A DNA stretch of 60,048 bases from Candidatus Omnitrophota bacterium (GCA_043742785.1 JAYTXU010000019.1:1-60048), one strand, 5' to 3'; positions 24,480 to 57,120 are shown, counted from the first letter of the stretch. Numbers and translations: made by a program. The notes: generated by a model from the letters alone, not told the origin.

Positions 24480-24507
24480 TTAATACCGCATTCCCAAAAT
24501 ACGAATA
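24480..24507 (-). repeat. Diverged duplicate of the argG 3' end
   Basis: 26/28 identical to 25071-25098; reads IRILGMRY* versus IRIWGMPY* in argG. Confidence 0.9.
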
Positions 24508-24509
24508 GC

Positions 24510-24758
24510 CTACGCTGCCTGCAATACGGAAAACCTAGCTTTAAGCGGTATTCTTTGCGCTTTGGAATTCGTAAAATGCTCTGTAAAATCCACAATAGTA
24601 AAACCAAGCACTTCTTTTGTCTTTAGGTCTCGGCGGACAATCACTCCATCATCCATCAGTTCCCCAATAGTTTCTCGAGGTTTGCCTTCCGTAATATAAA
24701 GAACGTCTGCTTCCTTATCATACGAAACGGTTAACTGATCAATTTTTTGTTTAGCCAT
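24510..24758 (-). CDS. DUF2283 family protein (putative antitoxin)
   Basis: 'SYDKEADVLYI', 'DGVIVRRD...EVLGFTI'. Confidence 0.85.
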   Translation of the reverse strand: MAKQKIDQLTVSYDKEADVLYITEGKPRETIGELMDDGVIVRRDLKTKEVLGFTIVDFTEHFTNSKAQRIPLKARFSVLQAA

Positions 24759-25045
24759 ATTATCTTACCTCCTCTGACCGAGTCACTAATAAAAGCTGTC
24801 TTAATACGGTTATCTCTTAAAGAAACAACAACGACCTTATATAAGTTATTTCTAAGATCTTTATGATAAATCCATCGATCATGCTTAGATTTGTCCTCTA
24901 CAATCGCAAACGGATCTAAAAGAGTGTCTTTGATGAAATCAACCGGATCTTTAATACAGTGCTCACGCCGGATATGCTCATACCCTGTTGGAGATAACAC
25001 AAACGAACGGCCATCTTTATCTTTGAATTGTATAGATTTAGTCAT
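24731..25045 (-). CDS. Small putative RelE/BECR-fold nuclease toxin paired with DUF2283
   Basis: 'YEHIRREH', 'DTLLDPFAI', 'VVVV...RIKTAF'; overlaps the DUF2283 start. Confidence 0.5.
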   Translation of the reverse strand: MTKSIQFKDKDGRSFVLSPTGYEHIRREHCIKDPVDFIKDTLLDPFAIVEDKSKHDRWIYHKDLRNNLYKVVVVSLRDNRIKTAFISDSVRGGKIIWLNKKLIS

Positions 25046-25070
25046 AACTACAAATCTTATTCACTCTCAG

Positions 25071-26234
25071 TTAATACGGCATTCCCCAAATACGAATAAA
25101 TCCTTCAGATAATCTTGGATCAAAAATATCTTTAGCGCCATAGGTGGCTAACTCTTCCTTGTAACGAGAAAAAGGAGATTTGCGGCCAACGACACTACAA
25201 CTTCCCTTAAATAATTTCATACGGACAACACCGCTAACACGTTTCTGTGTTTCATTAACAAATGCGTCAAGTTGTTGCTTTAAAGGCGTTTCCCATAACC
25301 CGTAATAAGTTAATTCCGCATATCGAGGTGAAATCAATTCCTTATAATGCAATGTCTCACGATCTAAAACCATTGCTTCTAATTCTTTGTGCGAAGTTAT
25401 CAAAATCGTCCCGGCTGGGTTTTCATATATTTCACGAGATTTAATACCCACCAATCGATTCTCCACCATATCCACACGGCCAACACCATTGCGTCCGCCT
25501 AATTCATTAAGTTTCTGAATCAATTCAACAGGTTTATACGTCTTACCATTAACCTTAACTGGGATACCTTTGGAATATTCAATCTCCACATACTCAGGCT
25601 TATTGGGACATTCTAAAGGATTCTTGGTCATCAAATAAATTTCTTCTGGTGGCTCAACCCAAGGGTCTTCCAAGATACCGCATTCAATGGAACGACCATA
25701 AAGATTAATATCCGTCGAATATGGACTCTTCTTTGTAACGTCGATTGGGATCTTATGCTTTTTGGCATAATCAATTTCCTGATCCCTAGTTTTAAATTCC
25801 CAAGTACGAAGTGGCGCTTGTAGTTCTAAATGTGGAGCTAAAATCTTAGCTGTTACTTCAAAACGGACCTGATCATTCCCCTTCCCCGTACAACCATGAG
25901 AAATTACATCCGCTTTTTCTTTTTTCGCCACGGCAACCTGATGCTTGGCAATTAAAGGACGTGATAAAGCCGTCGCTAAGAAATACTTGCCTTCATAAAC
26001 GGCATTAGCTTTAATAGCTGGAAAAACATAATCTTTTACAAACTCTTCCTTCAGATCCAAAATATAGACCTTCGATGCTCCCGTTGCTAATGCACGCTTT
26101 TCAATAATTTTAAAATCACTACCTTGGCCAACATCCGCCATAAAAGCAATCACTTCATACCCCTTATCCTTGTACCAACGGATTAAACAGCTCGTATCTA
26201 ATCCTCCCGAATATGCTAAAACGACCTTTTTCAT
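25071..26234 (-). CDS. argG: Argininosuccinate synthase
   Basis: 'VVLAYSGGLDTS', 'ALSRPLI', 'HGCTGKGNDQVRF', 'ENRLVGIKSREIYE'; true start ATG 26234 with GGAGG SD. Confidence 0.98.
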   Translation of the reverse strand: MKKVVLAYSGGLDTSCLIRWYKDKGYEVIAFMADVGQGSDFKIIEKRALATGASKVYILDLKEEFVKDYVFPAIKANAVYEGKYFLATALSRPLIAKHQVAVAKKEKADVISHGCTGKGNDQVRFEVTAKILAPHLELQAPLRTWEFKTRDQEIDYAKKHKIPIDVTKKSPYSTDINLYGRSIECGILEDPWVEPPEEIYLMTKNPLECPNKPEYVEIEYSKGIPVKVNGKTYKPVELIQKLNELGGRNGVGRVDMVENRLVGIKSREIYENPAGTILITSHKELEAMVLDRETLHYKELISPRYAELTYYGLWETPLKQQLDAFVNETQKRVSGVVRMKLFKGSCSVVGRKSPFSRYKEELATYGAKDIFDPRLSEGFIRIWGMPY

Positions 26235-26246
26235 TGATTCCTCCAT

Positions 26247-26299
26247 GTACGGGCAGGCCCCTGTGCCTGCCCTAGGCGGCCACAGGGGGCCGCCCCTAC
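26247..26299 (-). repeat. GTAG-tagged REP doublet between argF and argG
   Basis: GTAGGGGCGGCCCCCTGTGGCCGCC-TA-GGGCAGGCACAGGGGCCTGCCCGTAC; the TAG within GTAG is the argF stop. Confidence 0.85.
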
Positions 26300-27216
26300 G
26301 ATAATAAATATAACAACACGGCTTTTTGCGCATGCAGACGATTCTCTGCCTGATCAAATATAATCGAATGCTTCCCGTCAATAACATCTTCGGTGACTTC
26401 CAATCCTCGATGCGCTGGCAGGCAATGCATGAATTTATAGTTCTTATCAGCTAATTTTGTTAAGCTCGAATTAATCTGATAACCTTCAAATTCTTTAATA
26501 CGCTTCTTACTCTCTTCTTCCTGCCCCATACTCACCCAGACGTCAGCATAGATCACATGCGCGCCTTTAACTGCACTCTTTGGATCACGGCCTACCTCAA
26601 TTGTGACCTTATTAGCTTTGGCAACCGCTTGAGCTTCTTTAAAAATAGCAGGATTAGGATCATATCCTTTGGGTCCAGCAAAACGCACATTCATACCTAC
26701 CTTCACACAAGCCACCATCAGCGAATGAAAAACATTATTACCATCACCAACATACGCAACCGTCAATCCCTTAAATTTACCAAAATGTTCACGAATCGTT
26801 TGAATATCAGCCAGAGCCTGACAAGGATGATACAAATCACAAAGAGCATTAATCACCGGCACGTCCGCATGCTTGGCTAACTCGACCAAATCCTTATTAT
26901 CAAAAACACGGGCAACGATGCAATGCACGTAACGTGACAATGTCTTAGCCACATCATGGGTACTTTCACGCTCGCCTAAACTAATTTCACGAGGGCCAAG
27001 ATAAAGACTGTGCCCTCCCAATTGATGCACACCAACGGAGAAAGAAACACGAGTCCGATTAGAAGGTTTTTGAAATAATAATGCCACCGACTTACCTTTT
27101 AAATCAGCTCGAATCTTTCCTTTTTGTTTTTTAAGTTTATCCGCTGAATCCATCAAAGCTAAAATTTCAGCGTTAGAATAATCTAATAATCGAATTAAAT
27201 CTCGTTTCATATTCAT
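26296..27216 (-). CDS. argF: Ornithine carbamoyltransferase
   Basis: 'KPSNRTRVSF', 'HPCQALAD', 'YVGDGNNV', 'DVWVSMG', 'HCLPAHRG', 'QAENR'; start at ATG 27216 or 27210. Confidence 0.97.
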   Translation of the reverse strand: MNMKRDLIRLLDYSNAEILALMDSADKLKKQKGKIRADLKGKSVALLFQKPSNRTRVSFSVGVHQLGGHSLYLGPREISLGERESTHDVAKTLSRYVHCIVARVFDNKDLVELAKHADVPVINALCDLYHPCQALADIQTIREHFGKFKGLTVAYVGDGNNVFHSLMVACVKVGMNVRFAGPKGYDPNPAIFKEAQAVAKANKVTIEVGRDPKSAVKGAHVIYADVWVSMGQEEESKKRIKEFEGYQINSSLTKLADKNYKFMHCLPAHRGLEVTEDVIDGKHSIIFDQAENRLHAQKAVLLYLLS

Positions 27217-27218
27217 TT

Positions 27219-27312
27219 TGTCATGCCCGTGAAAACGGGCATCCATAACAGAATTAATTCTGCTTTAGATTCCCGCCCTGCCTACCGGCAGGCAGGTTTC
27301 GCGGGAATGACA
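27219..27312. repeat. TGTCA palindromic dimer with a nested CCTGCC...GGCAGG element
   Basis: Left unit 27219-27245; right unit 27266-27312 interrupted at 27277-27296 by CCTGCCTACCGGCAGGCAGG. Confidence 0.85.
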
Positions 27313-28502
27313 TTCTCCTTGTTATAAATTTTTTTAAACGCTTTATCTAAAATAAAAATAGCCTTATTAATTTGTCGACGGTTCACATTTAAAGCCGGCA
27401 TAATACGAAGCACATTGCCCTGCGTGCAATTGATAATCAAACCATGTTCAAAACATTCCTTAAAAATATCAGTTCCTTCCACCGTCAACTCAACCCCAAT
27501 CATAAGCCCAAGACCACGCACTTCTTTAATGATAGGATATTTATTTTTTAACTCGTTAAGTTTTTCAATTAAATAAGGCCCCAAAGACTTCACATTAGAT
27601 AAAATCTTATCACTATAAATCGCTTTAATAACACCAATCGCTGCCTTACAAACCAAAGGACTTCCGGCAAAAGTTGAACCATGCATCCCGGGTTTTAATA
27701 CATCCGCCATTTCTTTCTTAACAATCATAGCCCCAATAGGCAATCCACCACCTAAAGCTTTAGCTAAACACATAATATCAGGCGTTATCCCATAATGTTT
27801 ATAACAAAACATCTCGCCGGTTCGCGCCATACCCGTCTGGACTTCATCGATGATGAGAAGAATCTTCTTCTGATCACAAATCTTGCGAACTGCCTGCACG
27901 TATTCTTTAGAAGCTATATTAATTCCACCTTCGCCCTGAATCAGTTCAATCATGATGGCAACAGTCTTGTCACTCAGAACAGATTCGATTGCTTTAATAT
28001 CATTAAAAGGTACTGTTTTAAATCCAGGTAAAAGAGGCGCAAAACCTTGTTTGTGCTTAAGCTGTCCTGTGGCTGACAAAGCCCCCATGGTCCTTCCATG
28101 AAAGGAATTATCCGTCGTTATAATCTCAAAACGCGAGCCGTTCCCGTAAGCACGAGCAAACTTAATTGCTGCTTCATTGGCTTCAGTTCCGCTGTTGCAA
28201 AAAAATATTTTTCCAGGAAAAGAAATGCGGATCAATTCCTTAGCTAACTTGGCTTGAATAGGATTATACAAATTATTAGGCACATGAATAAGTTTGCTAA
28301 TTTGCTCACGTACAGCTCCCATTACCTTTGGATGACAATGACCAAGATTACTCACTCCCCAGCCAGGGAAAAAGTCTAAATATTTTTTACCGTGAATATC
28401 CGTCAAGAGGGAGCCCTTGCCCTTAACAAAAATCGCAGGCATACGCGTATAAGTCGCTAAAATATTTTCATTATATGAATTTAAGATATCTTCTTGTGTC
28501 AT
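27282..28502 (-). CDS. argD: Acetylornithine aminotransferase
   Basis: 'FFCNSGTEANEAA', 'FHGRT', 'DEVQTG', 'AKALGGG.P', 'HGSTFAG'; the C-terminal VIPAKPACR* is repeat-derived. Confidence 0.96.
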   Translation of the reverse strand: MTQEDILNSYNENILATYTRMPAIFVKGKGSLLTDIHGKKYLDFFPGWGVSNLGHCHPKVMGAVREQISKLIHVPNNLYNPIQAKLAKELIRISFPGKIFFCNSGTEANEAAIKFARAYGNGSRFEIITTDNSFHGRTMGALSATGQLKHKQGFAPLLPGFKTVPFNDIKAIESVLSDKTVAIMIELIQGEGGINIASKEYVQAVRKICDQKKILLIIDEVQTGMARTGEMFCYKHYGITPDIMCLAKALGGGLPIGAMIVKKEMADVLKPGMHGSTFAGSPLVCKAAIGVIKAIYSDKILSNVKSLGPYLIEKLNELKNKYPIIKEVRGLGLMIGVELTVEGTDIFKECFEHGLIINCTQGNVLRIMPALNVNRRQINKAIFILDKAFKKIYNKENVIPAKPACR

Positions 28503-28516
28503 AGTGTTTTCCAAAT

Positions 28517-28585
28517 TGTCATGCCCGAATGCCTTAATCGGGCATCCAGAACATGGACCCCCGATAAAAACATTCGGGGGTGACA
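28517..28585. repeat. TGTCA palindromic dimer between argB and argD
   Basis: TGTCATGCCCGAATGCCTTAATCGGGCATCCA-N5-TGGACCCCCGATAAAAACATTCGGGGGTGACA. Confidence 0.85.
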
Positions 28586-28592
28586 GTATTTG

Positions 28593-29447
28593 TTACTTAA
28601 TGATCTGTGTCCCAACCCCTTGATCTGTAAAGAATTCTAATAACAGTGCGTGAGGCATACGAGCATCAACAATGTGGGTCTTATGAACCCCTCCGCCCTT
28701 CAAGGCCTCGACGCAGGAACCGACCTTGGGAATCATTCCTCCTACAATCACACCACTTTTAATTAAATTATCAACTTCCTTAAGAGTTAATGTTGAAAGT
28801 AAGGTGCTCATATCCTTAAGATCTCGCATCACACCAGGTACATCGGTTAATAGAACAAGTTTCTCTGCCTTCATGGAATTAGCAATGGCACTAGCCACCT
28901 CATCCGCATTCACATTATGCGGCTGTTTCTCAACAGTCATTCCCATTGGAGAAACAACAGTAATATGCCCCTTAGCTAAATGCGCTTCTAAGTGTTCTTT
29001 GTTCACAGACGTAATCGTCCCAACAAATCCTAAATCTTTATCTGCCTTCTTTTTCTTCACAAAGATAATATTTTCCTGTCCCTTAAGACCTGTGACATCC
29101 CCTTTAAGCGCTTTAATTTCAGCTACAATTTTCTGATTCAATTTTTCTAATTCTTCACCAACAATTGTTAGAGTTTCTTTATCCGTCACACGAATACCAT
29201 CGACAAACTCGCTCTTTAAACCCTTTTCCTTCATACGGGCAGAAATGTGTGGTCCTCCACCGTGAACAATGATAATACGAATCCCAACATAACTTAAAAA
29301 GACAATGTCCCTTAAAACATTATGTCGAATTTTAGGATCATCCAGAATACTGCCGCCATATTTAACAACAAAAATCTTACGGCGGAATTCATTAATATAA
29401 GGAATCGCTTCAATTAAAATAGATGCTTTCTTGACAAATTCTTCCAT
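28593..29447 (-). CDS. argB: Acetylglutamate kinase
   Basis: 'VVKYGGS', 'VHGGGPHI', 'G.RVTD', 'NVNAD', 'GGMIPK'. Confidence 0.97.
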   Translation of the reverse strand: MEEFVKKASILIEAIPYINEFRRKIFVVKYGGSILDDPKIRHNVLRDIVFLSYVGIRIIIVHGGGPHISARMKEKGLKSEFVDGIRVTDKETLTIVGEELEKLNQKIVAEIKALKGDVTGLKGQENIIFVKKKKADKDLGFVGTITSVNKEHLEAHLAKGHITVVSPMGMTVEKQPHNVNADEVASAIANSMKAEKLVLLTDVPGVMRDLKDMSTLLSTLTLKEVDNLIKSGVIVGGMIPKVGSCVEALKGGGVHKTHIVDARMPHALLLEFFTDQGVGTQIIK

Positions 29448-29454
29448 AAATCCT

Positions 29455-30597
29455 TTAATTATATTCCGCGTTAATTTTTACGTAATCATAGGATAAATCA
29501 CTCGAATAAACAGTTGCCTGAGCCTTACCTAACCGAAGTTCTACTGTAATAGCAATATCTTTTTTGTCAAAAGGACTAAATAAAATTTTCATGGTATTCT
29601 CATCCACACCTTTTAAACCTAACGAACCAACCGCAGCACCCACACGTCCCCAATTAGGATTACTTCCAAAGGCAGCTGTCTTAACTAGTGCTGAGTTAGC
29701 AATAGCCTTGGCAATTTTCTTAGCTTGAATATCATTAGCTGCGCCTTTAACATTAATCGTAATAAATTTAGTTGCCCCCTCACCATCCAGAACAATCTTC
29801 TTAGCTAAATCAATACAAACAAATTCTAAAGCCTTATAAAACTTCTCAAAATCTGCTCCTTCACTGACAATCTTCTTATTGCCTGCTAAACCATTGGCTT
29901 GGATGGTTACCATATCATTAGTACTCATACAGCCATCTACGGTAATGCTATTGAATGAATGATCATTCGCCTTCTGCAATGCTTTCTTTAATAATGAAAA
30001 AGATATGGCGGCATCGGTAGTGACAAACCCAAGCATAGTCGCCATATTCGGTTCAATCATTCCAGAACCCTTAGCACAAGCGCCAATCGTAACGGTCTTT
30101 CCGCCTAAATTAATTTGCACCGCTTTTTCTTTCATCTTCAAATCCGTCGTCATAATGGCTTCTGCAAAACGACAGCCACCGCTATTAGACAAACCCTTTA
30201 CTAAATTTTCTGCTGCATTTGCAATTTTATTGTAAGGAAGCTGTTTTCCTATAATTCCTGTCGATGTTACTAGAACATCGGTCATCTTAATCTTTAACAA
30301 TTTAGCAATGAGAGCAGTAGAATCTTGAGCAACCTTCAAGCCCACAGCTCCGGTATAACAATTGGCATTTCCAGAATTAACCAAAACTGCTCGCCCCACA
30401 CCTTTTTTAATATGCTTCATAGTGACTAAAAGCGGTGCTGCTTTAATAGAATTTTTAGTAAACACCCCTGCTGTGACCGCGGATACTTCTGAAACAATAA
30501 GCCCTAAATCAGTTTTTCCTGAACGTTTAATCCCCGCTGCCACACCATTGGCTAAGAATCCTTTAGGAGAGGTCACTGATCCTTTGATAATTTTCAT
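29455..30597 (-). CDS. argJ: Bifunctional ornithine acetyltransferase / N-acetylglutamate synthase
   Basis: 'GVFT.N...AAP', 'NSGNAN', 'STGIIG', 'KGSGMIEPNMATML', 'STNDMV', 'DGEGATK', 'INAEY'. Confidence 0.97.
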   Translation of the reverse strand: MKIIKGSVTSPKGFLANGVAAGIKRSGKTDLGLIVSEVSAVTAGVFTKNSIKAAPLLVTMKHIKKGVGRAVLVNSGNANCYTGAVGLKVAQDSTALIAKLLKIKMTDVLVTSTGIIGKQLPYNKIANAAENLVKGLSNSGGCRFAEAIMTTDLKMKEKAVQINLGGKTVTIGACAKGSGMIEPNMATMLGFVTTDAAISFSLLKKALQKANDHSFNSITVDGCMSTNDMVTIQANGLAGNKKIVSEGADFEKFYKALEFVCIDLAKKIVLDGEGATKFITINVKGAANDIQAKKIAKAIANSALVKTAAFGSNPNWGRVGAAVGSLGLKGVDENTMKILFSPFDKKDIAITVELRLGKAQATVYSSDLSYDYVKINAEYN

Positions 30598-31625
30598 ATC
30601 AACCCTTCTGTCTCATTGAATCCGCACATAATATTCATATTCTGGACAGCTTGACCTGCCGCCCCTTTAACCAAATTATCAATAGCGCTTGTAATCACAA
30701 CCGTCTTCTTATCTTGACTGACAGCTAACCCAAGATCACAAAAGTTCGTATGAGTAACATTCTTAACTTCCGGCTGTGAACTAATCGGATGCACACGAAC
30801 AAAACTTTCTGTTTTATAAAACTTACTATAAAGCATATGCAATTGATTAAGGGTAATCGATGCATTCAACTGCACATAAATGGTATCCAAAATTCCTCGA
30901 TCAATCGGTAAAAGATGAGCCACAAAATGGACTGAAAGTTTTTTACCCGCTAATTGAGAAATCGTCTGATCAATCTCAGGAGCATGCTGATGACTTAAAA
31001 CTTTATAGGCCTTAAAATTTTCACTAACCTCAGAAGCAAGTAAACCTACCGAAAGCTTGCGCCCTGCCCCTGAAACTCCAGATTTAGCATCTACAATAAT
31101 TGACGTAATCAATTTTGAATGTGTCGCAACCAAAGGAGCTAAACCAAGGACAGCCGCAGTCGGATAACAGCCAGGATTAGCTATCAAAGAAGCTTTTTTA
31201 ATTTTTTGTCGATAAAGTTCCGGCAAGCCATAAACAGCTTTAGCAATATTCTTAGAATCGGTATGTTTATGCAAATACCAAGCTTCATAAGTCTTAGTAT
31301 TCTTAAGCCGATAATCTGCGCTTAAATCTATAACCTTAAGACCAGCTTTAAGCAAAACTCCTACCACCTTCATCGATTCCGTGTGAGGAAGCGCTAGAAA
31401 AACAATATCACAGTTTTTAACAACATCTTTAATCGCAAACTTTTGACAAATCAGGCTAGTACGATTAAGAAATTCTGGCCAAATGGCAGCAACCGGCCCC
31501 GTGGTATTTTGGGCTGCTACATAATTAACCCTAACCTTTGAATGATTAAGAAGAAGAGAAAAAACCTCTTTTCCCGTATACCCGCTTAATCCTATCACTG
31601 CACATCGCATCATATCTGTATTCAT
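30594..31625 (-). CDS. argC: N-acetyl-gamma-glutamyl-phosphate reductase
   Basis: 'FLALPH', 'DLSADYRL', 'YGLPE', 'ANPGCYPT', 'SGVSGAGR', 'DNLVKGAAGQAVQNMN'. Confidence 0.98.
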   Translation of the reverse strand: MNTDMMRCAVIGLSGYTGKEVFSLLLNHSKVRVNYVAAQNTTGPVAAIWPEFLNRTSLICQKFAIKDVVKNCDIVFLALPHTESMKVVGVLLKAGLKVIDLSADYRLKNTKTYEAWYLHKHTDSKNIAKAVYGLPELYRQKIKKASLIANPGCYPTAAVLGLAPLVATHSKLITSIIVDAKSGVSGAGRKLSVGLLASEVSENFKAYKVLSHQHAPEIDQTISQLAGKKLSVHFVAHLLPIDRGILDTIYVQLNASITLNQLHMLYSKFYKTESFVRVHPISSQPEVKNVTHTNFCDLGLAVSQDKKTVVITSAIDNLVKGAAGQAVQNMNIMCGFNETEGLI

Positions 31626-31660
31626 ATTATCTCCGTCGGAAAATAAATACTATAAATAAA

Positions 31661-31703
31661 AAAGCCTATCTCGTCAACGCATTTATGAAGGGAGATAGGC
31701 TTT
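31661..31703 (-). terminator. Intrinsic terminator after rpsI
   Basis: 12-bp stem AAAGCCTATCTC/GAGATAGGCTTT with a T-tract on the minus strand. Confidence 0.75.
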
Positions 31704-31727
31704 CTTAAAATTTTGTTTTTTATTAGG

Positions 31728-32123
31728 TTACCGCTTAACCCATTGGAACTTACGACGCGCCCCCTTCTGTCCTGGCTTCTTTCTTTCTTTCATTCTATCG
31801 TCTCTAGTCAAGCAGCCAGCTTTTTTAAGCACACCACGAGTTAAAGGGTCGCAAGAAATGAGTGCACGTGAAAGACCTAATCGAAATGCTCCTGCCTGAC
31901 CGGTTGAACCGCCACCAGTCACACGAACAGCAACATCGAATTTCTTTTCTAAATTTGTTAATTTCAAAGGAGTCATAATAGTTAGTCGATCAGTTTCGCG
32001 AGGAAAATAATCATTAAATCCGCGCTTATTGACAAAAATATTTCCCTCTCCCGGAGTTAGAACAACTCGGGCTACGGAGCTTTTACGACGACCTGTACCT
32101 GAATATTTAACGACTTCGACCAT
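31728..32123 (-). CDS. rpsI: 30S ribosomal protein S9
   Basis: '[12 protein letters not shown]', '[10 protein letters not shown]', '[12 protein letters not shown]...QWVKR'. Confidence 0.99.
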
Positions 32124-32144
32124 TTCTCTAATTTCTCCTTAAAT

Positions 32145-32173
32145 GTACAGGAGGATTTAAAATCCTCCCCTAC
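32145..32173 (-). repeat. GTAG-tagged REP-like palindrome between rplM and rpsI
   Basis: Minus strand GTAGGGGAGGATTTTAAATCCTCCTGTAC. Confidence 0.75.
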
Positions 32174-32175
32174 TA

Positions 32176-32604: not shown

Positions 32605-32671
32605 GACTGACTGCCTTTAAAATATTTTAATAAGCTTATGCCTTCAACTCTGGCAAATTTAAGAATGTTAA

Positions 32672-32699
32672 AATATAGCATTTTTCGAAATAATGTCAA
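32672..32699 (-). promoter_or_regulatory. rplM-rpsI promoter
   Basis: TTGACA, N16, TATATT with an upstream TG. Confidence 0.65.
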
Positions 32700-32723
32700 T
32701 ATTTTATTTCCACAATCATTGAT

Positions 32724-47961: not shown

Positions 47962-47986
47962 CAACAGAATCTCACTTAAGAAATGT

Positions 47987-48015: not shown

Positions 48016-48023
48016 TTGACGAT

Positions 48024-51000
48024 ATGAAATATTCTTCCACCCACGATATCTTACATAAACTGATGACCCAACGTATCCTCATTTTAGACGGAGCGATGGG
48101 TACTATGATCCAAAAATATAAGCTCACCGAAAGCCAATACCGCGGTGAACGTTTTAAGAATTATCCTCTCGATATTAAAGGCAACAACGACCTTTTATCT
48201 TTAACCCAGCCGCAAATTATCGAGGATATCCACAGCGAATATTTGAAAGCTGGCGCTGATATTATTGAAACAAACACCTTCAATAGTAATCGTGTCAGCA
48301 TGGCTGATTATAAAATGGAAGATTTAGTCTACGAACTGAATCTTGCTTCCGCCCAAATTGCTAAAAAAGCAGCAGAAAAATCCTCAAAAGAAAATCCCAA
48401 CAAACCGCGTTTTGTGGCCGGTGCTATTGGCCCAACAACCCGCACAACATCTCTCTCTCCAGATGTCAATAATCCAGCGTTCCGTGCTGTTAACTTTGAT
48501 CAATTAGTAGAAGCCTACACTGAACAATTACGCGGACTGATCGATGGCGGCGTCGATCTACTTCTCATCGAAACCATCTTCGATACCTTAAACGCTAAAG
48601 CTGCTATCTATGCGATTGAAACCTATTCAGAAAAAATTGGATTAAAATTACCTTTGATCATTTCAGGAACCATCACCGATGCCAGCGGACGAACTCTCTC
48701 TGGCCAAACCACAGAAGCTTTTTGGATTTCCGTCAAACATGCCAAACCTATAGCGATTGGTCTTAATTGTGCCCTAGGCCCAAAAGACATGCGTCAATAC
48801 ATTGCTGAACTCTCCAGAATCGCCAATACCTCGATCAGCTGTTATTCCAACGCCGGACTTCCCAACGCCTTTGGGGAATATGATTTAGAGGCTAAGGAAA
48901 TGGCCGCTATCATCAAAGAATTTGCCCAAAGCGGTTTATTAAATATCCTTGGTGGCTGCTGCGGAACCACCCCAGCGCATATTCAAGCAATGGCAGATGC
49001 TATTAAAGATTTTTCTCCTCGATCAATCCCTAAACTTACACCCCAAAGCTCCTTCTCAGGATTAGAGCCGTTGATCATTCGAGATAACAGCAATTTTGTG
49101 AATGTTGGCGAACGCACCAATGTCACTGGTTCAAAACAATTCGCCCGCTTGATTATTGCAGGACAATTTGATGAAGCCTTAGTGGTCGCCCGTCAGCAAG
49201 TCGAAAACGGCGCCCAGATGATTGACATCAACATGGATGAAGCCATGCTTAATTCTTCCCAAGCTATGACCACCTTCTTAAATCTCATTGCTTCAGAACC
49301 TGATATTTCTAAAGTCCCTATTATGATCGATTCCTCCAAATGGTCAGTTATTGAAGCAGGTCTTAAATGCGTTCAAGGCAAGTCCGTCGTTAACTCCATC
49401 AGCCTTAAAGAAGGTGAAGCTTCTTTTAAAGAACAAGCTCGCAAGGTTCTTTATTATGGAGCTGCGGCCATTATCATGGCCTTTGACGAAAAAGGTCAAG
49501 CTGATACAGTGGAAAAACGTGTCAGTATCTGTAAAAGAGCTTATAAAATTTTAACCGAAGAAATCGGCTTTGCCCCTGAAGATATTATCTTTGACCCTAA
49601 CATCTTTGCCATCGCAACCGGCATCGAAGAACACAATAATTACGCTAAAGATTTCTTTGAAGCAACCCGTTTGATCAAACAAGCCTGTCCAGGATGTTTA
49701 ATTTCCGGAGGTGTTTCGAACGTCTCCTTCTCTTTTCGTGGACAAGATACTGTAAGAGAAGCCATGCACTCCTCTTTTCTATATCATGCCATCAAGGAAG
49801 GAATGACCATGGGCATCGTGAACGCCGGGATGATCACCGTCTATGACCAAATCCCTAGAAATTTTCTAGAAATCGTTGAAGATGTCATTCTCAACCGCCG
49901 TCCTGATGCAACCGAACGTTTAGTCGGCTTTGCAGAAACGGTCAAATCTAAAGGTGAAAAGGTCGAAGAAGAACTCGCTTGGCGGAAACTTCCAGTAGGA
50001 GAACGTCTCTCCTATGCCCTTGTTAAAGGAATTGTCGAATTTATTGATGCTGATACCGAAGAAGCCAGAGCAAACACCAACCGGCCGCTGGATGTCATTG
50101 AAGGCCCCTTAATGAATGGGATGAATGTAGTGGGAGATCTTTTTGGTGCTGGAAAAATGTTTTTGCCTCAGGTGGTTAAAAGTGCCCGGGTAATGAAAAA
50201 GGCTGTCGCTTATCTGACTCCTTTTATTGAAAAAGAGAAAGATCAAAAAAATACCAAGGTGGCTGGAACCGTTGTCATGGCTACCGTCAAGGGTGATGTT
50301 CATGATATTGGAAAGAATATTGTAGGAGTTGTTCTTGCCTGTAATGGATTTAAAATTATTGATCTTGGAGTCATGGTCTCCTGTCAAAAAATACTCGATG
50401 AAGCTAAACTAAATATCGCAGATATGATTGGCCTTTCTGGTTTAATTACTCCCTCCTTAGAGGAAATGGCCTATGTCGCTTCTGAAATGGAACGTCAAAA
50501 TATTTCGATTCCCCTTCTTATAGGAGGAGCAACCACTTCACCGGCGCATACAGCTGTTAAGATTGAACCTGCTTACACAAAAGCTCCTGTCATCCACAGC
50601 AAGGATGCTTCCAAAGCGGTGGGTGTTTGCCGCTCATTAATGGATCCCCAACTTAAAGAAAACTTAATTAGTAAAACCAAAGCCGATTACATTATGCTTC
50701 GTCAGGAACATTTAAGCCTGCAAACTGCTAGATCTTTTGTTCCCATTGAAAAGGCTAGACAAAAAGCTCTAATCACCGATTGGAAAGAAATAACTATCAC
50801 TAAGCCATCCTTCTTAGGTGTTAAAACATTTAAAGACTTTGATTTAAATACCATCCGTTCCTACATCGACTGGTCACCGTTTTTTAATACTTGGGAATTA
50901 AAAGGCAAATATCCTCAAATTCTCAAAGATTCCACCTATGGCGCCGAGGCTAGCCGTGTGTATAACGATGCGAATACTCTTCTCGATGAAATCATTGCTA

Positions 51001-51710
51001 AGAGGCTTCTTAAAGCAAATGCCGTTGTGTGCTTCTATCCTGCTAATTCAGTGAGAGATGATATTGAATTGTATACCGATGATAGCCGCAAAAAAGTTCT
51101 AGACGTTTTCTATAATCTAAGACAACAAATCATTGTACGTGAAGAACAAGCTCTTCTTTCTCATGCGGATTACATCGCGCCTAAATCCTCAGGGGTTAAA
51201 GATTATATCGGAGGCTTTGCTGTAACAACCGGTATAGGATTAGATGAATTAGTCAGAATCTTTGAAGATGATCTTGATGATTACAAAAGCATTATGGCTA
51301 AAGCGGTGGCTGATCGTTTAGCTGAAGCTTTTACAGAATTGATGCATGAGAAGGTTCGTAAAGAACTTTGGGGTTATGCTTCTGATGAAAATCTCAACAA
51401 TGAACAAATTATTCTAGGAAATTATCGCGGTATTCGCCCAGCACCTGGTTATCCTGCCTGTCCGGATCATACAGAAAAAGCTACTCTTTTTAAACTATTA
51501 GACGCCACCAAAAACACGGGCATTACTTTGACTGAAAGTTTTGCCATGCTTCCAACAGCAGCCGTCTGCGGCATGTATTTTTCCCACCCTCAATCTAAAT
51601 ACTTTTCTTTAGGAAAAATTAACAAAGACCAAATAGCCCTCTACGCCAAACGTAAGAATATGTCAGTGCAGGAAGTTGAAAAATGGCTGGGGCCGAATTT
51701 GGGATATTAA
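48024..51710 (+). CDS. metH: Cobalamin-dependent methionine synthase
   Basis: '[10 protein letters not shown]', 'GGCCGTTP', '[10 protein letters not shown]', B12 motif '[11 protein letters not shown]', '[12 protein letters not shown]'. Confidence 0.99.
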
Positions 51711-52363
51711 ACCTTTTTCGCTAAACGATGCAACTCCTCATTAGCCAAGGCAGATACTTTTTTTCTGACCGTACGTGAAAAATATTCTCTTTCAGTTTTG
51801 GTTAAAACTTCGCCTTTCAGTTTCTTTTTAAAAAGTTCTTTCTGCTTGGGAGAAAACACTTGGGACAAAGAAAATTCTAAAGACAATTCTTCATGCTTGG
51901 CATTTAAATTCTTTACCTCTTTTGATTCCCCTGTTAAATAGTTCTCAAAAGCCTTTTTGACACGTTCCATACTTAACCGATAACCCCCGACCTTAACTTC
52001 TAGGACAGAAAAAGCACACAATGACTTAAGCCTTACCTTTTCTTTAAAAGATAATTTAGCCACGTAGGTCTTGGCCCAATCAAAATAAAGATCATTGGCC
52101 TTATATAGTGCCAGGGACAACAGAAACAAGCCTTTCAACGTCTCCTTGGCCTCTTTTGAGCCCAATAAGGCCTGTAACTTGGAAAAGTCAAAACTACCCT
52201 CCTTAGTCGCATTAACCAACATGACGGGAAAACCTTCAAGGAAACGCACATTCTTGGACTTAACCACCTCAGCTAAGGTTTGATTAACATCCAAAACCCC
52301 TTCAGCTTCCAAGAGTGGGTACCCAAGGCGACCAAGTTTCTCTAATAATTTTTTATTGTCCAT
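51707..52363 (-). CDS. Hypothetical partner of the nucleotidyltransferase (possible antitoxin/HTH)
   Basis: AAGGAG SD before ATG 52363; basic C-terminal '[26 protein letters not shown]'; overlaps the upstream NTase stop. Confidence 0.6.
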
Positions 52364-52964
52364 GAAATTTCTCCTTGTCTGCCGAAAGGCAGGCTTCTTT
52401 AAATACTCGCTCATAATTTTCCCAATTCTTAATCAATCTATCTTCCGCAATATCATATTTAGCTGTTTCCATATAACGTTCTTTAAGCCTCTCCATTTTA
52501 ATTTCATTACGCCTCGCCCTAAATAACATCAAACAATCTTCAACATCAACTGTCGTACCCCGAAACAACTTACTAACAATCAAATCATACTCATTAAGAA
52601 TACCTATATAAATATAAGAAAGCTCTTTAACGACAACATGATTCTCTTTTTCTATGGAAGATTCCAGTAATTCTGTCGTATGGACTCTCTTTCCCTTAAA
52701 AAGATCAAAAATAAACACTTCACCTTCTTTTCTCCACCCTGAGCCAGTTTCTTGTGTGTACCCTAGCTGTTTTAATGTCTTTATCAAATAATCGTATTCT
52801 TGATCTATAGGAATAAGCAAATCGACATCCTTGGTCGATTCCTTAATTCCCCAAAGGGTCATTGCTGTTCCTCCACAAGCTATTAAATGAACCTTCTTAT
52901 TAAGAAATCTATTCCAAAGTCCAAGTGTTTGCAATAAATCCGTTTTTGTTAGACGATATTCCAT
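52353..52964 (-). CDS. Pol-beta-like nucleotidyltransferase (DUF6036/AbiEii-like)
   Basis: 'LIACGGTAM.L.G.KESTKDVD' (GG..T.D.D signature), 'DLIVSKL.RG...D.ED'. Confidence 0.75.
   Translation of the reverse strand: MEYRLTKTDLLQTLGLWNRFLNKKVHLIACGGTAMTLWGIKESTKDVDLLIPIDQEYDYLIKTLKQLGYTQETGSGWRKEGEVFIFDLFKGKRVHTTELLESSIEKENHVVVKELSYIYIGILNEYDLIVSKLFRGTTVDVEDCLMLFRARRNEIKMERLKERYMETAKYDIAEDRLIKNWENYERVFKEACLSADKEKFHGQ
52377..52394. repeat. CCTGCC/GGCAGG-family mini-hairpin, in frame in the NTase 3' end
   Basis: GTCTGCC-GAAA-GGCAGGC; encodes ACLSAD. Confidence 0.55.
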
Positions 52965-52990
52965 ATAATTGTCCTTTTATATACACTTTA

Positions 52991-53050
52991 TTGTACTTAT
53001 TTGTACAACTACTTGTGCTTAAGCATACAATATTATGCTATTCTTGTCAA
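52991..53050 (-). promoter_or_regulatory. Promoter and candidate operator of the NTase operon
   Basis: TTGACA (53050-53045), N17, TATGCT (53027-53022); palindromes TTGTAC-N6-GTACAA (52991-53008) and TGCTTAAGCA (53016-53025). Confidence 0.6.
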
Positions 53051-53177
53051 ACTTTTATTATTACCTAAAAAAGCGGCATATAATACATATTGTTAGGTAT
53101 CATCATTATTGCACAGATTAAAAACAATCTAAAAAATGGCTGGGATGGCCTTCCTCTTACTTTTTCACAAAATGGAT

Positions 53178-53224
53178 TTTATCAATTTCCGTCTTGTGGC
53201 CGGCTTAATCGCCGGCGAAAACCT
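53178..53224. repeat. 47-bp direct repeat, copy 1
   Basis: 39/47 identical to 54699-54745; the two copies bracket the AAA gene. Confidence 0.75.
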
Positions 53225-54546
53225 CATTTTTGTAAAGAAAGTCCAATAAATCTCTCAAGATGGTCAGCTAAAAATATTGGAATATTAAGAAGGTTACCGT
53301 CTTTTTTCAAATTCTTTAACGAGAATCTCACCCGTACCCGCGGGCTGTATTGCTTGTCATATAAAGCAAGGCTTTTGCCGCGTACATTGTTATCTGATTT
53401 GACTTCCACAGGTAAAATATCATTGGCGCGCTGGATAGTGAAATCAACCTCAGCCGTCGAACCAGAAGACCAGTATCTTGGGCTAACTTCATACTGGGCT
53501 ACAAGACTTTGTAAAATATAATTCTCAGTAAGCGCCCCTTTAAACTCTGAGAATAACCGATTGCCTTCACCAAACGATGCCGGATCAAGAAATGCCAATC
53601 GCCGCAAAATGCCAACATCAACCACATAAAGCTTAAACGCGGACAAATCATCATACGCTGATACAGGAAGACCCGGCTTGGAATTTCGATAAACTTTATA
53701 TACAAGGCCGGCATTAGATAGCCATGTCACGGCATCCTCGTACTCCCTTGCTCTGACCCCCGGTTTAACTGCCTTATAAATAAACTTCTTGTTTTCTCTC
53801 GAAAGCTGGGAAGGAATGGACGACCAAATATACCCTAACTTGGCAATATCCTTTTTTTCCGCGTGTTTTGAAAAGTCGAGCTCGTAAGCATCCAATATAT
53901 CCCGCAACACCTTTTGGACAAGTGGGATATCCTGTTTTTCAGCCCAGGCTTGCACCGATTCTGGCATCCCGCCAGTAATAAAATACATCTTCAGCTTTTC
54001 ATGCAACTGGTTAAAGAAAATATCCGGTATTGGCTCCAATAAACTAATATTATTTATGTATGTCACAAGCCTCTCTTCTCCCATTGCCAATAAGAATTCT
54101 GTAAAAGTCATCGGATACATTGTCAAGAAATCTACCTTCCCAACGGGAAACGTAGATGGTTTAGAAACCCTGACTCCCAAGAGCGATCCCGCGCAAGCAA
54201 CATGATATTCTGGGGCATTCTCAAAAAAGTATTTTAAAGTATTAAGCGCGGCGGGACATTCCTGAATTTCATCAAAAATAATGAGAGTTTTTCCAGGAAG
54301 GATAGGCGCGCCATTGACTAGGGAAAGCTGTTGAAGAATTCTTTGCGGATCCTTGGTCTTTTCAAAATATTGCTTTAATTCAGGCTGTTCGTCAAAATTA
54401 AAATAAGCTGTATTTTGATACTGTTTTGAACCAAATTCTTTTAAGACCCAAGTCTTGCCAACCTGCCGCACGCCCCTTAAAATAAGCGGCTTCCTTTTAA
54501 CGGACCTTCCCCATAACTCTAATTGGCTCAATATTAATCGCTTCAT
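53224..54546 (-). CDS. AAA_14 ATPase with DUF4143 (PD-(D/E)XK-like C-terminus)
   Basis: GVRQVGKT, 'IIFDEIQ', 'AGSLL', 'GGMPE', 'KLY..D.G', 'EVDF...PVEVKS'. Confidence 0.9.
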   Translation of the reverse strand: MKRLILSQLELWGRSVKRKPLILRGVRQVGKTWVLKEFGSKQYQNTAYFNFDEQPELKQYFEKTKDPQRILQQLSLVNGAPILPGKTLIIFDEIQECPAALNTLKYFFENAPEYHVACAGSLLGVRVSKPSTFPVGKVDFLTMYPMTFTEFLLAMGEERLVTYINNISLLEPIPDIFFNQLHEKLKMYFITGGMPESVQAWAEKQDIPLVQKVLRDILDAYELDFSKHAEKKDIAKLGYIWSSIPSQLSRENKKFIYKAVKPGVRAREYEDAVTWLSNAGLVYKVYRNSKPGLPVSAYDDLSAFKLYVVDVGILRRLAFLDPASFGEGNRLFSEFKGALTENYILQSLVAQYEVSPRYWSSGSTAEVDFTIQRANDILPVEVKSDNNVRGKSLALYDKQYSPRVRVRFSLKNLKKDGNLLNIPIFLADHLERFIGLSLQK

Positions 54547-54596
54547 AATAAATTCCTCCAAAACTTTAGCAAATAGAAATCACCTTATTAGTCATG

Positions 54597-54620
54597 TTTA
54601 TGTGATTAAAATCACATAAA
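54597..54620. promoter_or_regulatory. Palindromic operator upstream of the AAA gene
   Basis: TTTATGTGAT-TAAA-ATCACATAAA, containing TGTGA-N6-TCACA; lies just downstream of TTGCGT-N16-TATACT. Confidence 0.55.
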
Positions 54621-54698
54621 AACAACTAAAGTATACACGAAATACCAAAAAACGCAATTTCAAGAATTTTTATTGGGATTGCTTCTTTGCGGAAAGGA

Positions 54699-54745
54699 TT
54701 TATCAATTTCCATTTTGTAACCGGCTAAATCGCGGGCGGAAGCCT
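54699..54745. repeat. 47-bp direct repeat, copy 2
   Basis: 39/47 identical to 53178-53224. Confidence 0.75.
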
Positions 54746-54867
54746 GGCATCCGTCGATCAATACAACGAACCTACAAGGTTCGTAAATTTTCTAAATCCG
54801 CGCTATAAAGAATGGCAAAATAGAATAATTGGGTGTATTAACAAAATCTAAATTTATTGGTGGGAAA

Positions 54868-55038
54868 CTATTTAAACCTTTTTAACTGACTCGCAGGAAT
54901 TTTTACCACCTTACCATTCTTCCAAATAATTAATGGCTCACCGCGCATTTTTCGATCAGCAATGACACCTCGTACTGCTTTCTTGATTGCTTTCTCTGCT
55001 TTTTGTGAAATAATTTCACCTTCTGCTTTCTTAATCAT
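54868..55038 (-). CDS. 56-aa protein coupled to the Zeta-like ATPase (missing from the ORF track)
   Basis: MIKKAEGEIISQKAEKAIKKAVRGVIADRKMRGEPLIIWKNGKVVKIPASQLKRFK*; ATGA overlap with the upstream stop; GGAGG SD. Confidence 0.75.
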   Translation of the reverse strand: MIKKAEGEIISQKAEKAIKKAVRGVIADRKMRGEPLIIWKNGKVVKIPASQLKRFK

Positions 55039-55610
55039 GTCTTGCCTCCAGATTTAATCCAGTGCTGGTAAAGTTTTTTATCAAAGACTTGTAATGCTTT
55101 TTCATTAAATTTTACAACCAAAACAGGATCCATCCCAGAATTATCAAAAACATCCCACGAATTAGCTAAAGGCATATATAAGGTAAAAAAATTACTTAAA
55201 CTCCTCGTTAATCTTCTTTTTACATCCACATCAGGCACATGATGTCCACCCTGTTTGACTCTTTGTTTAATTCTTTCTTTAGCAAGATGTATGTTAGGTA
55301 TCCATAAAAAGAAAATATGAACAGAATAGCCTTTTAATTTAGCTTCATTGATCAAATGAACATATGTCTTACCTGCCAAAGTCGTCTCAAAAGAAAAATC
55401 GACCTTACGACTAATGAACCTATCGATCTCTTTTAGTAATAATTTACCGGCTTTAATACTAGCCTCAGCAGGAGTAAATGGAGCAATCCCCATAGCAATC
55501 AAATCCGCATTCACAAAATTGGAACATTTCGCATAATGCGGCAGGAACTCCTTAGCAAATGTTGTTTTACCCGCACCATTGGGACCAGCAATAATATACA
55601 GTTTAGGCAT
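55035..55610 (-). CDS. Zeta-toxin-like P-loop kinase/ATPase
   Basis: 'IAGPNGAGKTT', 'FVNADLIA', 'FETTL', 'RV..GGH.VP', 'DNS'. Confidence 0.88.
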   Translation of the reverse strand: MPKLYIIAGPNGAGKTTFAKEFLPHYAKCSNFVNADLIAMGIAPFTPAEASIKAGKLLLKEIDRFISRKVDFSFETTLAGKTYVHLINEAKLKGYSVHIFFLWIPNIHLAKERIKQRVKQGGHHVPDVDVKRRLTRSLSNFFTLYMPLANSWDVFDNSGMDPVLVVKFNEKALQVFDKKLYQHWIKSGGKT

Positions 55611-55850
55611 GGAGTTAGTTTAACACCACCTATAAAGCAAAACAAGAAAACCCTCCATAAAATTATACCAAAGAACCTTTGAGCATCTTCAAGTTATCAT
55701 TTATAATCGACCTATTGTGTATTAGATTTAACCATCCAAACACCACCGAAGCCATTGAGTTGAGTTTTTGGGATTAATTCAGAAGCTAGAAAAACGATAT
55801 GTTAACCTGCAAATTGTCATACAAAATGAAGTTGACGAATTCAGAAATAT

Positions 55851-57008
55851 ATGAATAATAATCCTATGATTAGAAGGACAACTTCATTTCCAACGGATCA
55901 GAGCTATTTCTTGTTTGGGCCTCGAGGCACAGGAAAAACAACATGGGTTCTTGCTCAATACCCAGAAGCCATATATATCGACTTGTTAGATGCCGATATT
56001 CGGGATCGTCTTTTAGCGCATCCCAAGCAATTATCAGATATTATCCCGACAGGCACCAAAGAATGGATCATTATAGATGAGATCCAATTTGTCCCGGCTC
56101 TGCTTCACGAAGTCCATCGGCTAATATCCACCAAAAAATATAAATTTGTTCTAACTGGATCAAGCGCCCGTTCGCTTCGAAGAAAAGGCGTTAATTTATT
56201 AGGAGGTCGTGCGGCGACGCGTTTTTTCCATCCGCTTACAGCCATGGAATTGGGCAAGCAGTTTGACTTACAGCGTTCGCTACAGTATGGACATTTACCT
56301 TCGGCATCTTTAGGAAAATCTCCTAAGGTATACCTTAAAGGGTATATTCTGAATTACTTAAAGAATGAAGTTAAGCAAGAAGGTTTGACTCGTAATCTAG
56401 GGGCATTTTCACGATTCTTGGAGGTTGCTAGTTTTTCGCAAGGAGGGATACTTAATTATACAGAAATCGCCCGGGAAGCAAGTATTAATCGTATGGTTGT
56501 AATGAATTATTTTGATATTTTAGAAGACCTTTTAGTAGGGATGCGTTTACCAGTATTTACCAAGAAGGCTAAACGTCGTCTTGTCATGCACCACAAATTT
56601 TATTATTTTGATGTTGGTATTTATCGTACTATTCGTCCTATGGGGCCTTTAGATATGCCGGAGAGTATTTCCGGAACAGCTATGGAAACCCTGATTCTTC
56701 AAGAATTGCGTGCGATTAATGACGCTTTGGATTTGGGGTATGAAATCTTTTACTGGCGCACCCCCAATAAAGTTGAAGTTGATTTTGTGTTATATGGAGA
56801 AAAAGGGATCCTTGCCATTGAAAGCAAATCTTCCCAAAGACTCACTTCGGATATGTTTCGGGGGTTAAAAAATTTTAAAAGCGATTATCCTGTGGCTAAA
56901 TCTTATTTGGTTTATGGCGGCACTCATCGAGAATATCGTGATGATATTCAAGTCATCGGTGTTCAAGAATTTCTGCAAACTTTACCAAAGATACTAAAGA
57001 ACTTTTGA
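55851..57008 (+). CDS. AAA_14 ATPase with DUF4143, second paralogue
   Basis: GPRGTGKT, 'IIIDEIQ', 'LTGSSAR.L', 'L.GRA', 'KFYYFD.G', 'EVDF...AIESKS'. Confidence 0.9.
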   Translation: MNNNPMIRRTTSFPTDQSYFLFGPRGTGKTTWVLAQYPEAIYIDLLDADIRDRLLAHPKQLSDIIPTGTKEWIIIDEIQFVPALLHEVHRLISTKKYKFVLTGSSARSLRRKGVNLLGGRAATRFFHPLTAMELGKQFDLQRSLQYGHLPSASLGKSPKVYLKGYILNYLKNEVKQEGLTRNLGAFSRFLEVASFSQGGILNYTEIAREASINRMVVMNYFDILEDLLVGMRLPVFTKKAKRRLVMHHKFYYFDVGIYRTIRPMGPLDMPESISGTAMETLILQELRAINDALDLGYEIFYWRTPNKVEVDFVLYGEKGILAIESKSSQRLTSDMFRGLKNFKSDYPVAKSYLVYGGTHREYRDDIQVIGVQEFLQTLPKILKNF

Positions 57009-57080
57009 GCGCTTTAAAATTATCGTTTCTAATCAATGCCTTGCCGATTAGAATTAAACATCTAAGACAAAAATATAAAA

Positions 57081-57120
57081 GAAGCTGAGAAATGGCTGGT
57101 ACCAAATTTAGGATATTAAA
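57081..57120 (+). repeat. Diverged duplicate of the metH 3' end
   Basis: GAAGCTGAGAAATGGCTGGTACCAAATTTAGGATATTAAA reads EAEKWLVPNLGY*, versus [12 protein letters not shown] in metH. Confidence 0.9.

Follow-up and report, generated by a model that had tools for sequence, protein, structure and literature searches.

Toxin–antitoxin and defence cassettes between duplicated gene ends in an Omnitrophota genome resemble insertions with long target duplication

In the genome of a Candidatus Omnitrophota bacterium (GCA_043742785.1; hereafter G000), short cassettes of toxin–antitoxin (TA)-like and candidate defence genes lie behind the housekeeping genes argG and metH, each enclosed between the working end of the gene and a diverged spare copy of that end. 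Both sites are on one contig of 60,048 nucleotides (nt) (JAYTXU010000019.1:1-60048, contig C19), which is the stretch analysed here and is referred to as the window; G000 itself is a metagenome-assembled genome of 1.9 Mb in 85 contigs, with 37% G+C and 82% completeness. The loci bear on the question of how TA genes and small defence genes travel without a plasmid, phage or transposon to carry them. Here we describe the anatomy of these inserts, the matching empty sites in related genomes, the recurrence of the arrangement, the absence of a recombinase in cis and the unrelated targets occupied by a single cassette family. We consider it somewhat probable, and the best explanation at hand, that the footprints are insertions with long target duplication (ILTD), of which the survivors were filtered at tight gene joints and then turned over through flanking homology. 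An earlier interpretation made by a model from the sequence alone (the sequence-only reading) had proposed a candidate system of integrase-free cassettes; novelty as a system is not supported, and the footprint fits a known but obscure kind, the published ILTD, extended here to TA and defence cargo in Omnitrophota.

Cassettes at the ends of argG and metH

The argG gene is followed by an insert of 591 nt, measured from repeat start to repeat start, that consists of two overlapping small genes (Table 1). Its borders are tight: the open reading frame (ORF) of the first cargo gene begins 25 nt past the argG stop codon, and the stop codon of the second lies 2 nt before the spare argG end. The spare end is decaying, with both of its differences from the working copy being nonsynonymous (W to L and P to R). 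The first cargo gene encodes a putative toxin, whose match to Pfam PF18810 scores 24 bits, below the cut-off of 27.1; several of its 40 homologues (46–88% identity) have a precomputed PF18810 assignment. Together with its DUF2283 partner it is conserved as a unit in more than ten contexts, and on sequence grounds the two form a putative TA pair. The true start of argG lies near position 26234 (relatives align from about residue 50), and the same argG structure recurs in contigs assembled independently from two other samples.

The metH gene is followed by a larger island, at the far border of which the spare metH end abuts the start codon of the next gene with a single base between them (TAA-A-ATG), like the empty site of relatives. 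The two metH copies differ by T/C, A/G, GG/TA, G/A and G/A, and four of these six differences fall at third codon positions. Nested inside the island, a 47-nt direct repeat encloses one ATPase gene plus its upstream region; this ATPase and the second one in the island are only distant relatives of each other. The sequence-only reading had listed all three repeats, and each was confirmed with the identity given in Table 1.

Table 1 Coordinates of the inserts, their neighbours and the tRNA islands used for comparison (positions in the window unless another contig of G000 is named; aa, amino acids)
Feature	Coordinates	Strand	Remarks
Type IV pilus locus	118-7095		
argH (argininosuccinate lyase)	22638-24014	-	Pfam Lyase_1 and ASL_C2
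120-aa hydrophobic ORF	24018-24380	-	Between spare argG end and argH; 3 nt before argH ATG
Spare, decaying argG end	24480-24507	-	26/28 identical to working copy
Cargo gene 2, 82-aa DUF2283 partner (putative antitoxin)	24510-24758	-	Pfam PF10049, 24.4 bits (cut-off 23)
Cargo gene 1, 104-aa PBECR2-like (Barnase/EndoU/RelE-like) putative toxin	24731-25045	-	
Working argG end, proximal direct repeat	25071-25098	-	Last 8 codons and stop
argG (argininosuccinate synthase)	25071-26387	-	Pfam Arginosuc_synth and Arginosuc_syn_C
metH (B12-dependent methionine synthase)	48024-51710	+	Five Pfam domains
Working metH end, proximal direct repeat	51672-51711	+	
235-aa ORF of unknown family	51707-52414	-	Convergent with metH
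metH island	51711-57080		
DUF6036 nucleotidyltransferase	52353-52964	-	
Nested direct repeat, first copy	53178-53224		Beside ATPase stop
Nested cassette gene, AAA_14/DUF4143 ATPase	53224-54561	-	PADLOC candidate defence family PDC-S01
Nested direct repeat, second copy	54699-54745		Intergenic; 39/47
56-aa ORF	54868-55038	-	Overlaps zeta-toxin-like kinase
Zeta-toxin/AAA_33-like kinase	55035-55610	-	
Second AAA_14/DUF4143 ATPase	55851-57008	+	PDC-S01
Spare metH end	57081-57120	+	34/40; still reads EAEKWLVPNLGY and stop
Membrane glycosyltransferase-like gene (TMEM260/PMT-like)	57121-59184	+	Native metH neighbour in G005, G004
Classical tRNA island	C48 89270-101286		
Classical tRNA island	C34 27971-33248		
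Classical tRNA island	C10 12810-19790		
Classical tRNA island	C49 164-9160		

Empty and occupied sites in relatives

We compared the joint between argG and argH across 35 Omnitrophota argG loci. The site is empty in 12 relatives, in which argH starts 8–23 nt after the argG stop codon. Two congeners share the design seen in G000 with other cargo: the argG end is duplicated around VapB and a PIN toxin in G006 (21/24 identical, spacing 718 nt), and around a PIN-like gene and a 74-aa ORF in G007 (32/35, spacing 715 nt). The left borders of the three argG repeats are unequal, giving lengths of about 24 nt (G006), 28 nt (G000) and 35 nt (G007). The spare copy of G006 is nearer to the G000 allele than to the tail of its own argG. 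Both copies in G007 have a lineage-specific CTG codon, yet they differ at three synonymous sites further upstream, and all of their differences are synonymous. Elsewhere the joint holds a conserved pair of genes with no repeat around it, a HicB gene, or hairpins resembling repetitive extragenic palindromes (REP-like hairpins).

Hairpins of the last kind (GTCATNCCCG....CGGGNATC) also occur in the window at 16584–16640 and 27220–27243 and have about 20 copies in the genome, with related ones lying immediately 3′ of the argG stop codon in G001, G012 and G006; the element at 27220 falls within a spurious N-terminal extension of the argG ORF. The 120-aa ORF that separates the spare argG end from argH has no family match. 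Because it is missing from the argG–argH joint of every relative, it is probably a further insert, one without a visible repeat.

At the empty metH site of G005 the PMT-like membrane gene follows 5 nt past the stop codon, and in G004 a comparable membrane protein is encoded about 50 nt downstream. G001 has an unrelated AbiEii/AbiEi pair at its metH stop codon and no spare metH end within 10 kb. The convergent cargo genes of G000 and G001 are unrelated, and common descent of the two inserts was rejected on that ground. The 235-aa ORF of G000 (window 51707–51710) and AbiEii of G001 (locus L042, 2397–2400) both take their stop codons from the TTA of the metH TATTAA end; the same junction nucleotide was therefore used in independent insertions. 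Since the same sites hold different cargo in different genomes, the argG–argH joint and the metH end act as small hotspots, as the sequence-only reading had supposed for defence genes at gene ends.

The repeats exceed chance similarity

The gene-tail repeats have sharp borders, ending at or within the stop codon, and in the whole of G000 each of the three window repeats is present solely as its own pair. A degenerate 33-nt pattern of the metH tail, run on 63 family genomes, was found once per genome in 29 of them and twice only in G000, and the reversed pattern, used as a control, had no match in any of the 63. Once multi-copy elements and gene-interior repeats had been removed, the unique short repeat pairs of G000 with copies 300–12,000 nt apart comprised 13 direct pairs and no inverted one. 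A genome of low G+C content and repeats of this shortness might invite an explanation by chance similarity in AT-rich DNA, or by an assembly artefact. That explanation is refuted by the clean control, the uniqueness of the pairs, the reading frame and stop codon kept in the repeats, the congeners with the same design and the recovery of the same structure in independent assemblies; we assign it a negligible probability.

Further cassettes in the genome

All 1,781 gene tails of G000 were scanned, followed by a self-comparison of the whole genome. The scan yielded a third gene-tail case, on contig C74, in which an AHSA1-like gene is followed by a single ORF6N cargo gene and then by a copy of the gene end (33/34); together with the two congeners at argG, it goes against the refuting outcome named in the sequence-only reading, that no further cases exist in the genome or its relatives. 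At the corresponding empty site, the next ATG lies 2–5 nt past the stop codon in G004, G005 and G017. The empty sites of argG, metH and C74 therefore identify all three as insertions at very tight operon joints.

The arrangement of duplicated sequence around cargo without a recombinase recurs in other settings. On contig C35 (3351–4185), a HEPN/MNT-type TA pair in a pseudopilin operon lies between 39-nt intergenic direct repeats (90%). On contig C48, a 39-nt repeat surrounds a protease gene within a tRNA island, and on contig C63 a 51-nt repeat surrounds a single gene. Elsewhere on C63 (24192–27151), a small gene has its opening 42 nt, together with the start codon, repeated 2.9 kb downstream with an in-frame stop; this duplication encloses four ORFs, and its second copy lies just before a giant gene of 3,987 aa. 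The C35, C48 and nested repeats are thus duplicated intergenic sequence, and the 42-nt C63 repeat, like the glmU case described below, is a duplicated 5′ head, so that the restriction to 3′ ends of housekeeping genes proposed in the sequence-only reading does not hold. Ten of the 18 positions at which repeat copies differ are third codon positions; we rejected this bias as a means of discriminating between models, because purifying selection on the working copy would give an equal bias.

One cassette family at unrelated targets

Relatives of the two-gene argG cassette occupy quite different places. In L102 (GCA_023247445) the same cassette, with about 78% nucleotide identity across its ORFs, stands directly after metH, where a spare metH end is at best a weak candidate (14/17 identical, p about 0.12). 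In L114 (Logan SRR22388234 contig, 469–1097) it stands just upstream of glmU, between 43-nt copies (41/43) that include the glmU start codon, and apart from the two ORFs the insertion brought in no more than 6 nt at one border and 1 nt at the other. What is left of the glmU head is an ORF of 16 codons, and its TGA overlaps the ATG of the toxin gene; the antitoxin stop codon lies 4 nt from the real glmU ATG, an arrangement that suggests expression by translational coupling to host signals. In L105 (JGI 3300045502 contig) the cassette is one unit of a stack of lower G+C content in a genome of 55–65% G+C, with three copies of a 26–36-nt intergenic sequence between successive TA cassettes. The same contig (2235–5520) carries a pair of the kind found in diversity-generating retroelements (DGRs), with a 133-nt variable and template repeat (VR/TR, 86%), an FGE-sulfatase target and bAvd, followed by the TA stack and a second FGE-sulfatase gene; no reverse transcriptase (RT) gene is present in the 8 kb read.

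One cassette family is hence flanked by three unrelated duplicates: the argG tail in G000, the glmU head in L114 and intergenic sequence in L105. Beside none of these three cassettes did we see a leftover of an earlier target. A single sequence-specific recombinase is therefore unlikely.

The sequence-only reading had drawn attention to a motif shared by the two window targets, and it had offered a trans-acting recombinase with a loose motif as one possible cause. The observation is literally true: among the gene tails of G000, ATTTGGG and a TATTAA end occur together in argG and metH alone, and random tail pairs would share the last hexamer plus any 7-mer with a probability of about 0.0013 (a statistic chosen post hoc). 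The motif is absent from the C74, C35, C63, C48 and nested repeats and from the glmU and L105 targets. One motif-guided recombinase was accordingly rejected, as the motif is limited to argG and metH and missing at all other duplicated targets; we regard it as a hint of site preference rather than a recognition site.

Recombinases, DNA uptake genes and integrative elements

As the sequence-only reading had noted, no recombinase lies in cis: neither Phage_integrase nor Resolvase profiles have a match on contig C19. G000 as a whole encodes ten tyrosine recombinases that are intact and two that are fragments, along with five serine recombinases. Its integrases occupy islands of 5–12 kb beside tRNA-Met, tRNA-Asp, tRNA-Thr and tRNA-Ser. 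Each of the four classical tRNA islands encodes a tyrosine integrase of 366–415 aa and is bounded by partial tRNA copies of 41–64 nt, which are 100% identical in three islands and about 90% identical at tRNA-Ser; the tRNA-Thr repeat spans the 5′ half of the tRNA. The small cassettes, with their diverged repeats and missing integrase, stand in useful contrast to these islands of the same genome. Two other elements carry serine recombinases. On contig C56 (1033–5004), the 3′ end of a 179-aa gene is the site of a 3.9-kb element, flanked by 32-nt direct repeats (91%), that encodes a small serine recombinase and phage-like ORFs; this element is thus repeat-flanked with its own recombinase. On contig C6 (46–1611), the gene for a large serine recombinase of 436 aa, at the end of the contig, neighbours a 78-aa N-terminal fragment of a ComM/YifB-type gene, which looks like an element integrated into comM. 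In the window, no tRNA and no Rfam family were found, and the remaining sizeable ORFs that were scanned are housekeeping genes.

Integrase-less att-flanked elements (CIMEs) and accretion at gene 3′ ends are known from streptococcal systems of integrative conjugative and mobilizable elements. The main rival explanation is that our inserts are of this kind, that is, decayed or trans-mobilised integrative elements. A tyrosine integrase with the gene end as its attB would have inserted an element bearing a replacement end, and the integrase module would since have been deleted, or an integrase encoded elsewhere would mobilise the small cassettes. The order of gene, cargo and diverged gene end is the classic picture of attL and attR; as in CIMEs, the cargo sits between a working gene end and a displaced copy, the element has no integrase, and sites can be reused and elements can stack. 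The genome contains intact recombinases that could act in trans, its tRNA islands were built in that way, and the short-repeat island on C56 does hold a serine recombinase. Reuse of the same sites with different cargo, and the motif common to argG and metH, also agree with it. Several features are harder to accommodate, however. The 60-kb contig lacks a recombinase, no integrase-bearing partner was found at these sites, with none downstream of argG in the 35 Omnitrophota loci, and none of those loci has an integrase-sized occupant together with a duplicated argG end. The cassettes measure 0.6–1.5 kb, and the 1–2 nt between cargo stop codon and repeat leave no room for an attP arm. Unlike in CIMEs, the extent of the repeat varies, as the left borders of the three argG cases show; unrelated repeats surround one cassette family, with no conserved att core, and other repeats lack the motif. 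We therefore judge this explanation unlikely, though it deserves more weight than the rivals considered below.

ComEC, DprA and a type IV pilus are present in G000; the pilus locus is in the window, as the sequence-only reading had noted, and the DNA-uptake genes that it proposed to look for were found. They permit transformation and do not show it, since ComEC and DprA are common in bacteria.

Homologous exchange, template switching and cassette systems

A different possibility is that a cassette circulates together with one gene-end copy, as a unit released by recombination between the repeats, and that a single RecA-type crossover at the orthologous gene end of a new genome regenerates the duplication, the gene end serving as a portable address label. 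This would account for the reuse of sites and for stacks such as that of L105, where three repeat copies surround two cassettes. The synonymous differences in G007 and the third-position differences in metH look like those between two working alleles, although purifying selection on the working copy would by itself produce such a bias. The affinity of the G006 spare copy to the G000 allele, with a TTG change in common, points the same way. Against this, homology of 24–47 nt is no longer than the minimum that RecA exchange usually needs to be efficient, and the left borders of the argG repeats vary among congeners. Purely tag-carried movement is moreover hard to reconcile with three unrelated tags on one cassette family, because no relic of an earlier tag is left beside any of them. 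We think it rather improbable. The reuse of sites and the TTG and CTG patterns nevertheless leave room for homologous exchange between relatives or for a trans-acting integrase.

The insert could also have arisen by an RNA-mediated or replicative template switch, in which a polymerase or reverse transcriptase passed from operon to cassette and back to the operon at an offset, the product then being fixed by homologous recombination. Cassettes trimmed nearly to their ORFs, the co-orientation of nearly all small cassettes with the host operon, the varying length of the duplication and the position of the L105 TA stack inside a DGR locus would all suit such a process. Co-orientation would equally result from selection on promoterless cargo or from the general strand bias of neighbouring genes, however; no RVT_1 reverse transcriptase was found in G000, a genome that is 82% complete, and there is no direct evidence for the switch. 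We consider this origin very unlikely.

Known systems with similar outlines were compared as well. A diverged copy of a gene 3′ end a few hundred bases downstream recalls the VR/TR pair of a DGR, of which L105 offers an example; a DGR, however, has repeats of about 130 nt with adenine-specific differences and needs an RT and Avd, none of which applies in the window. With no RT found in the genome and no adenine bias in the copy differences, a DGR origin was rejected. Integron cassettes are likewise small, mostly promoterless, co-oriented, often TA pairs, stacked at one site and expressed from host signals. Here, by contrast, there is no attC hairpin, with 1–2 nt between cargo stop codon and repeat, there is neither attI nor IntI, and the repeat is a copy of the target rather than borne by the element. 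Integron, IMEX/dif and Tn7-type origins were rejected, given the lack of attC, repeats that are unlike between sites and duplications far longer than 5 bp.

Probable insertion with long target duplication

ILTD of restriction–modification (R-M) gene complexes was reportedly described by Nobusato et al. in Gene in 2000. In such cases, R-M genes have been inserted without a mobility gene between direct target duplications of 46–423 bp that are unique in the genome (Furuta 2010, PMC2853133). The Haemophilus influenzae examples have 46-bp duplications that overlap gene 3′ ends by 2–15 bp, and the cases come mostly from naturally competent species, the mechanism being unknown (PMC2853133).

The inserts of G000 share several traits of ILTD: they have no integrase or transposase in or beside them, their direct duplications of tens of bases correspond to a single copy at the empty site, the repeats are not dispersed and the cargo is of a selfish or addictive kind. 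Empty sites are present in related genomes at argG, metH and C74. Furuta et al. set the repeat at more than about 30 bp, and the metH (40), nested (47), C74 (34) and G007 (35) repeats are above that length, and the argG repeats of G000 and G006 fall just under it. The differences from ILTD lie in the cargo, which comprises TA-like pairs, PDC-S01 candidate defence ATPases, a nucleotidyltransferase and an ORF6N gene instead of R-M genes with a nuclease able to make a break; in the shorter duplications (24–47 nt versus 46–423 bp); in the repeated use of the same joint; and in the Omnitrophota host. Our literature search found nothing specific on TA cassettes with such footprints.

The following sequence of events would fit. 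Foreign DNA with a compact selfish or defence cassette, such as a TA pair, a single ATPase or an ORF6N gene, would be joined to the chromosome at a tight joint of two operon genes. The element would have no recombinase of its own, and the two junctions would be offset by 24–47 bp, so that this stretch would flank the insert on either side. The upstream gene would retain its last codons and stop codon in the copy joined to it; the other copy would keep the native lead-in to the downstream gene and otherwise decay. Where the genes are only 1–14 nt apart, only insertions that duplicate the joint would spare both neighbours, which would account both for repeats that end at the stop codon and for a spare copy that abuts the next gene. 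A settled cassette would be kept by addiction or by its defence benefit, and ordinary homologous recombination, acting on the conserved flanks or between the two repeat copies, could import it, replace it or delete it; such turnover would make small hotspots of the argG–argH joint and the metH end. We infer that incoming DNA, which transformation may have delivered, was joined by illegitimate or short-homology repair, that selection did the filtering and that homologous recombination brought about the later turnover.

Homology-facilitated illegitimate recombination during natural transformation, said to have been described by de Vries and Wackernagel in 2002, is a related process. It similarly adds foreign DNA without a recombinase beside a conserved anchor gene, and DNA-uptake genes are present in G000. 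As a rule, however, the recipient DNA is replaced or deleted in this process and not duplicated, and the process is not known to leave a characteristic duplication of 24–47 nt.

Several observations weigh against ILTD. Some concern targeting: the joint is reused more than uniform random insertion would allow, with three duplicated argG ends in eight congeners in addition to other cargo, and three unrelated inserts lie at the metH stop codon, which points to targeting or to a hotspot property of the joint. The motif shared by argG and metH, together with the argG-type cassette after metH in L102, fits a motif-guided process. Others concern descent: the spare copies of G000 and G006 have a derived TGG to TTG change in common, a hint that the two share descent or derive from a carried tag and were not duplicated independently, and no donor molecule, circle or within-species empty allele was seen, exact-protein look-ups with argG, argH and the toxin giving only the occupied arrangement. 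Finally, the argG repeats of G000 (28) and G006 (about 24) are just short of 30 bp; of the contexts in which the cassette family was read, about two thirds (five to eight besides those described) have no repeat, and a metagenome scan for further relatives returned 13 loci with about five new contexts, none with a clear repeat.

Implications

Beyond the individual footprints, we would tentatively entertain a wider view, which we hold to be doubtful at present: that TA and single-gene defence cassettes are widespread, enzyme-free 'operon parasites', trimmed to their ORFs, promoterless and inserted by host repair or replication at tight joints with an offset that duplicates the joint, where they take over host transcription and translation signals, with certain gene ends such as argG and metH preferred across genomes through some property of their sequence or structure. 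Their insertion could proceed by illegitimate joining of transformed DNA or by template switching.

The loci described here offer a natural test set, in which one joint has three cargos and many empty alleles and one cassette family has three unrelated targets. They argue that a recombinase-free route, so far published only for R-M genes, is also used by addiction and defence cassettes, here in an uncultured phylum of deep branching, and they suggest why such cassettes accumulate at the ends of conserved housekeeping genes. If this is true, genome annotation should read a short spare gene end as an insertion scar.

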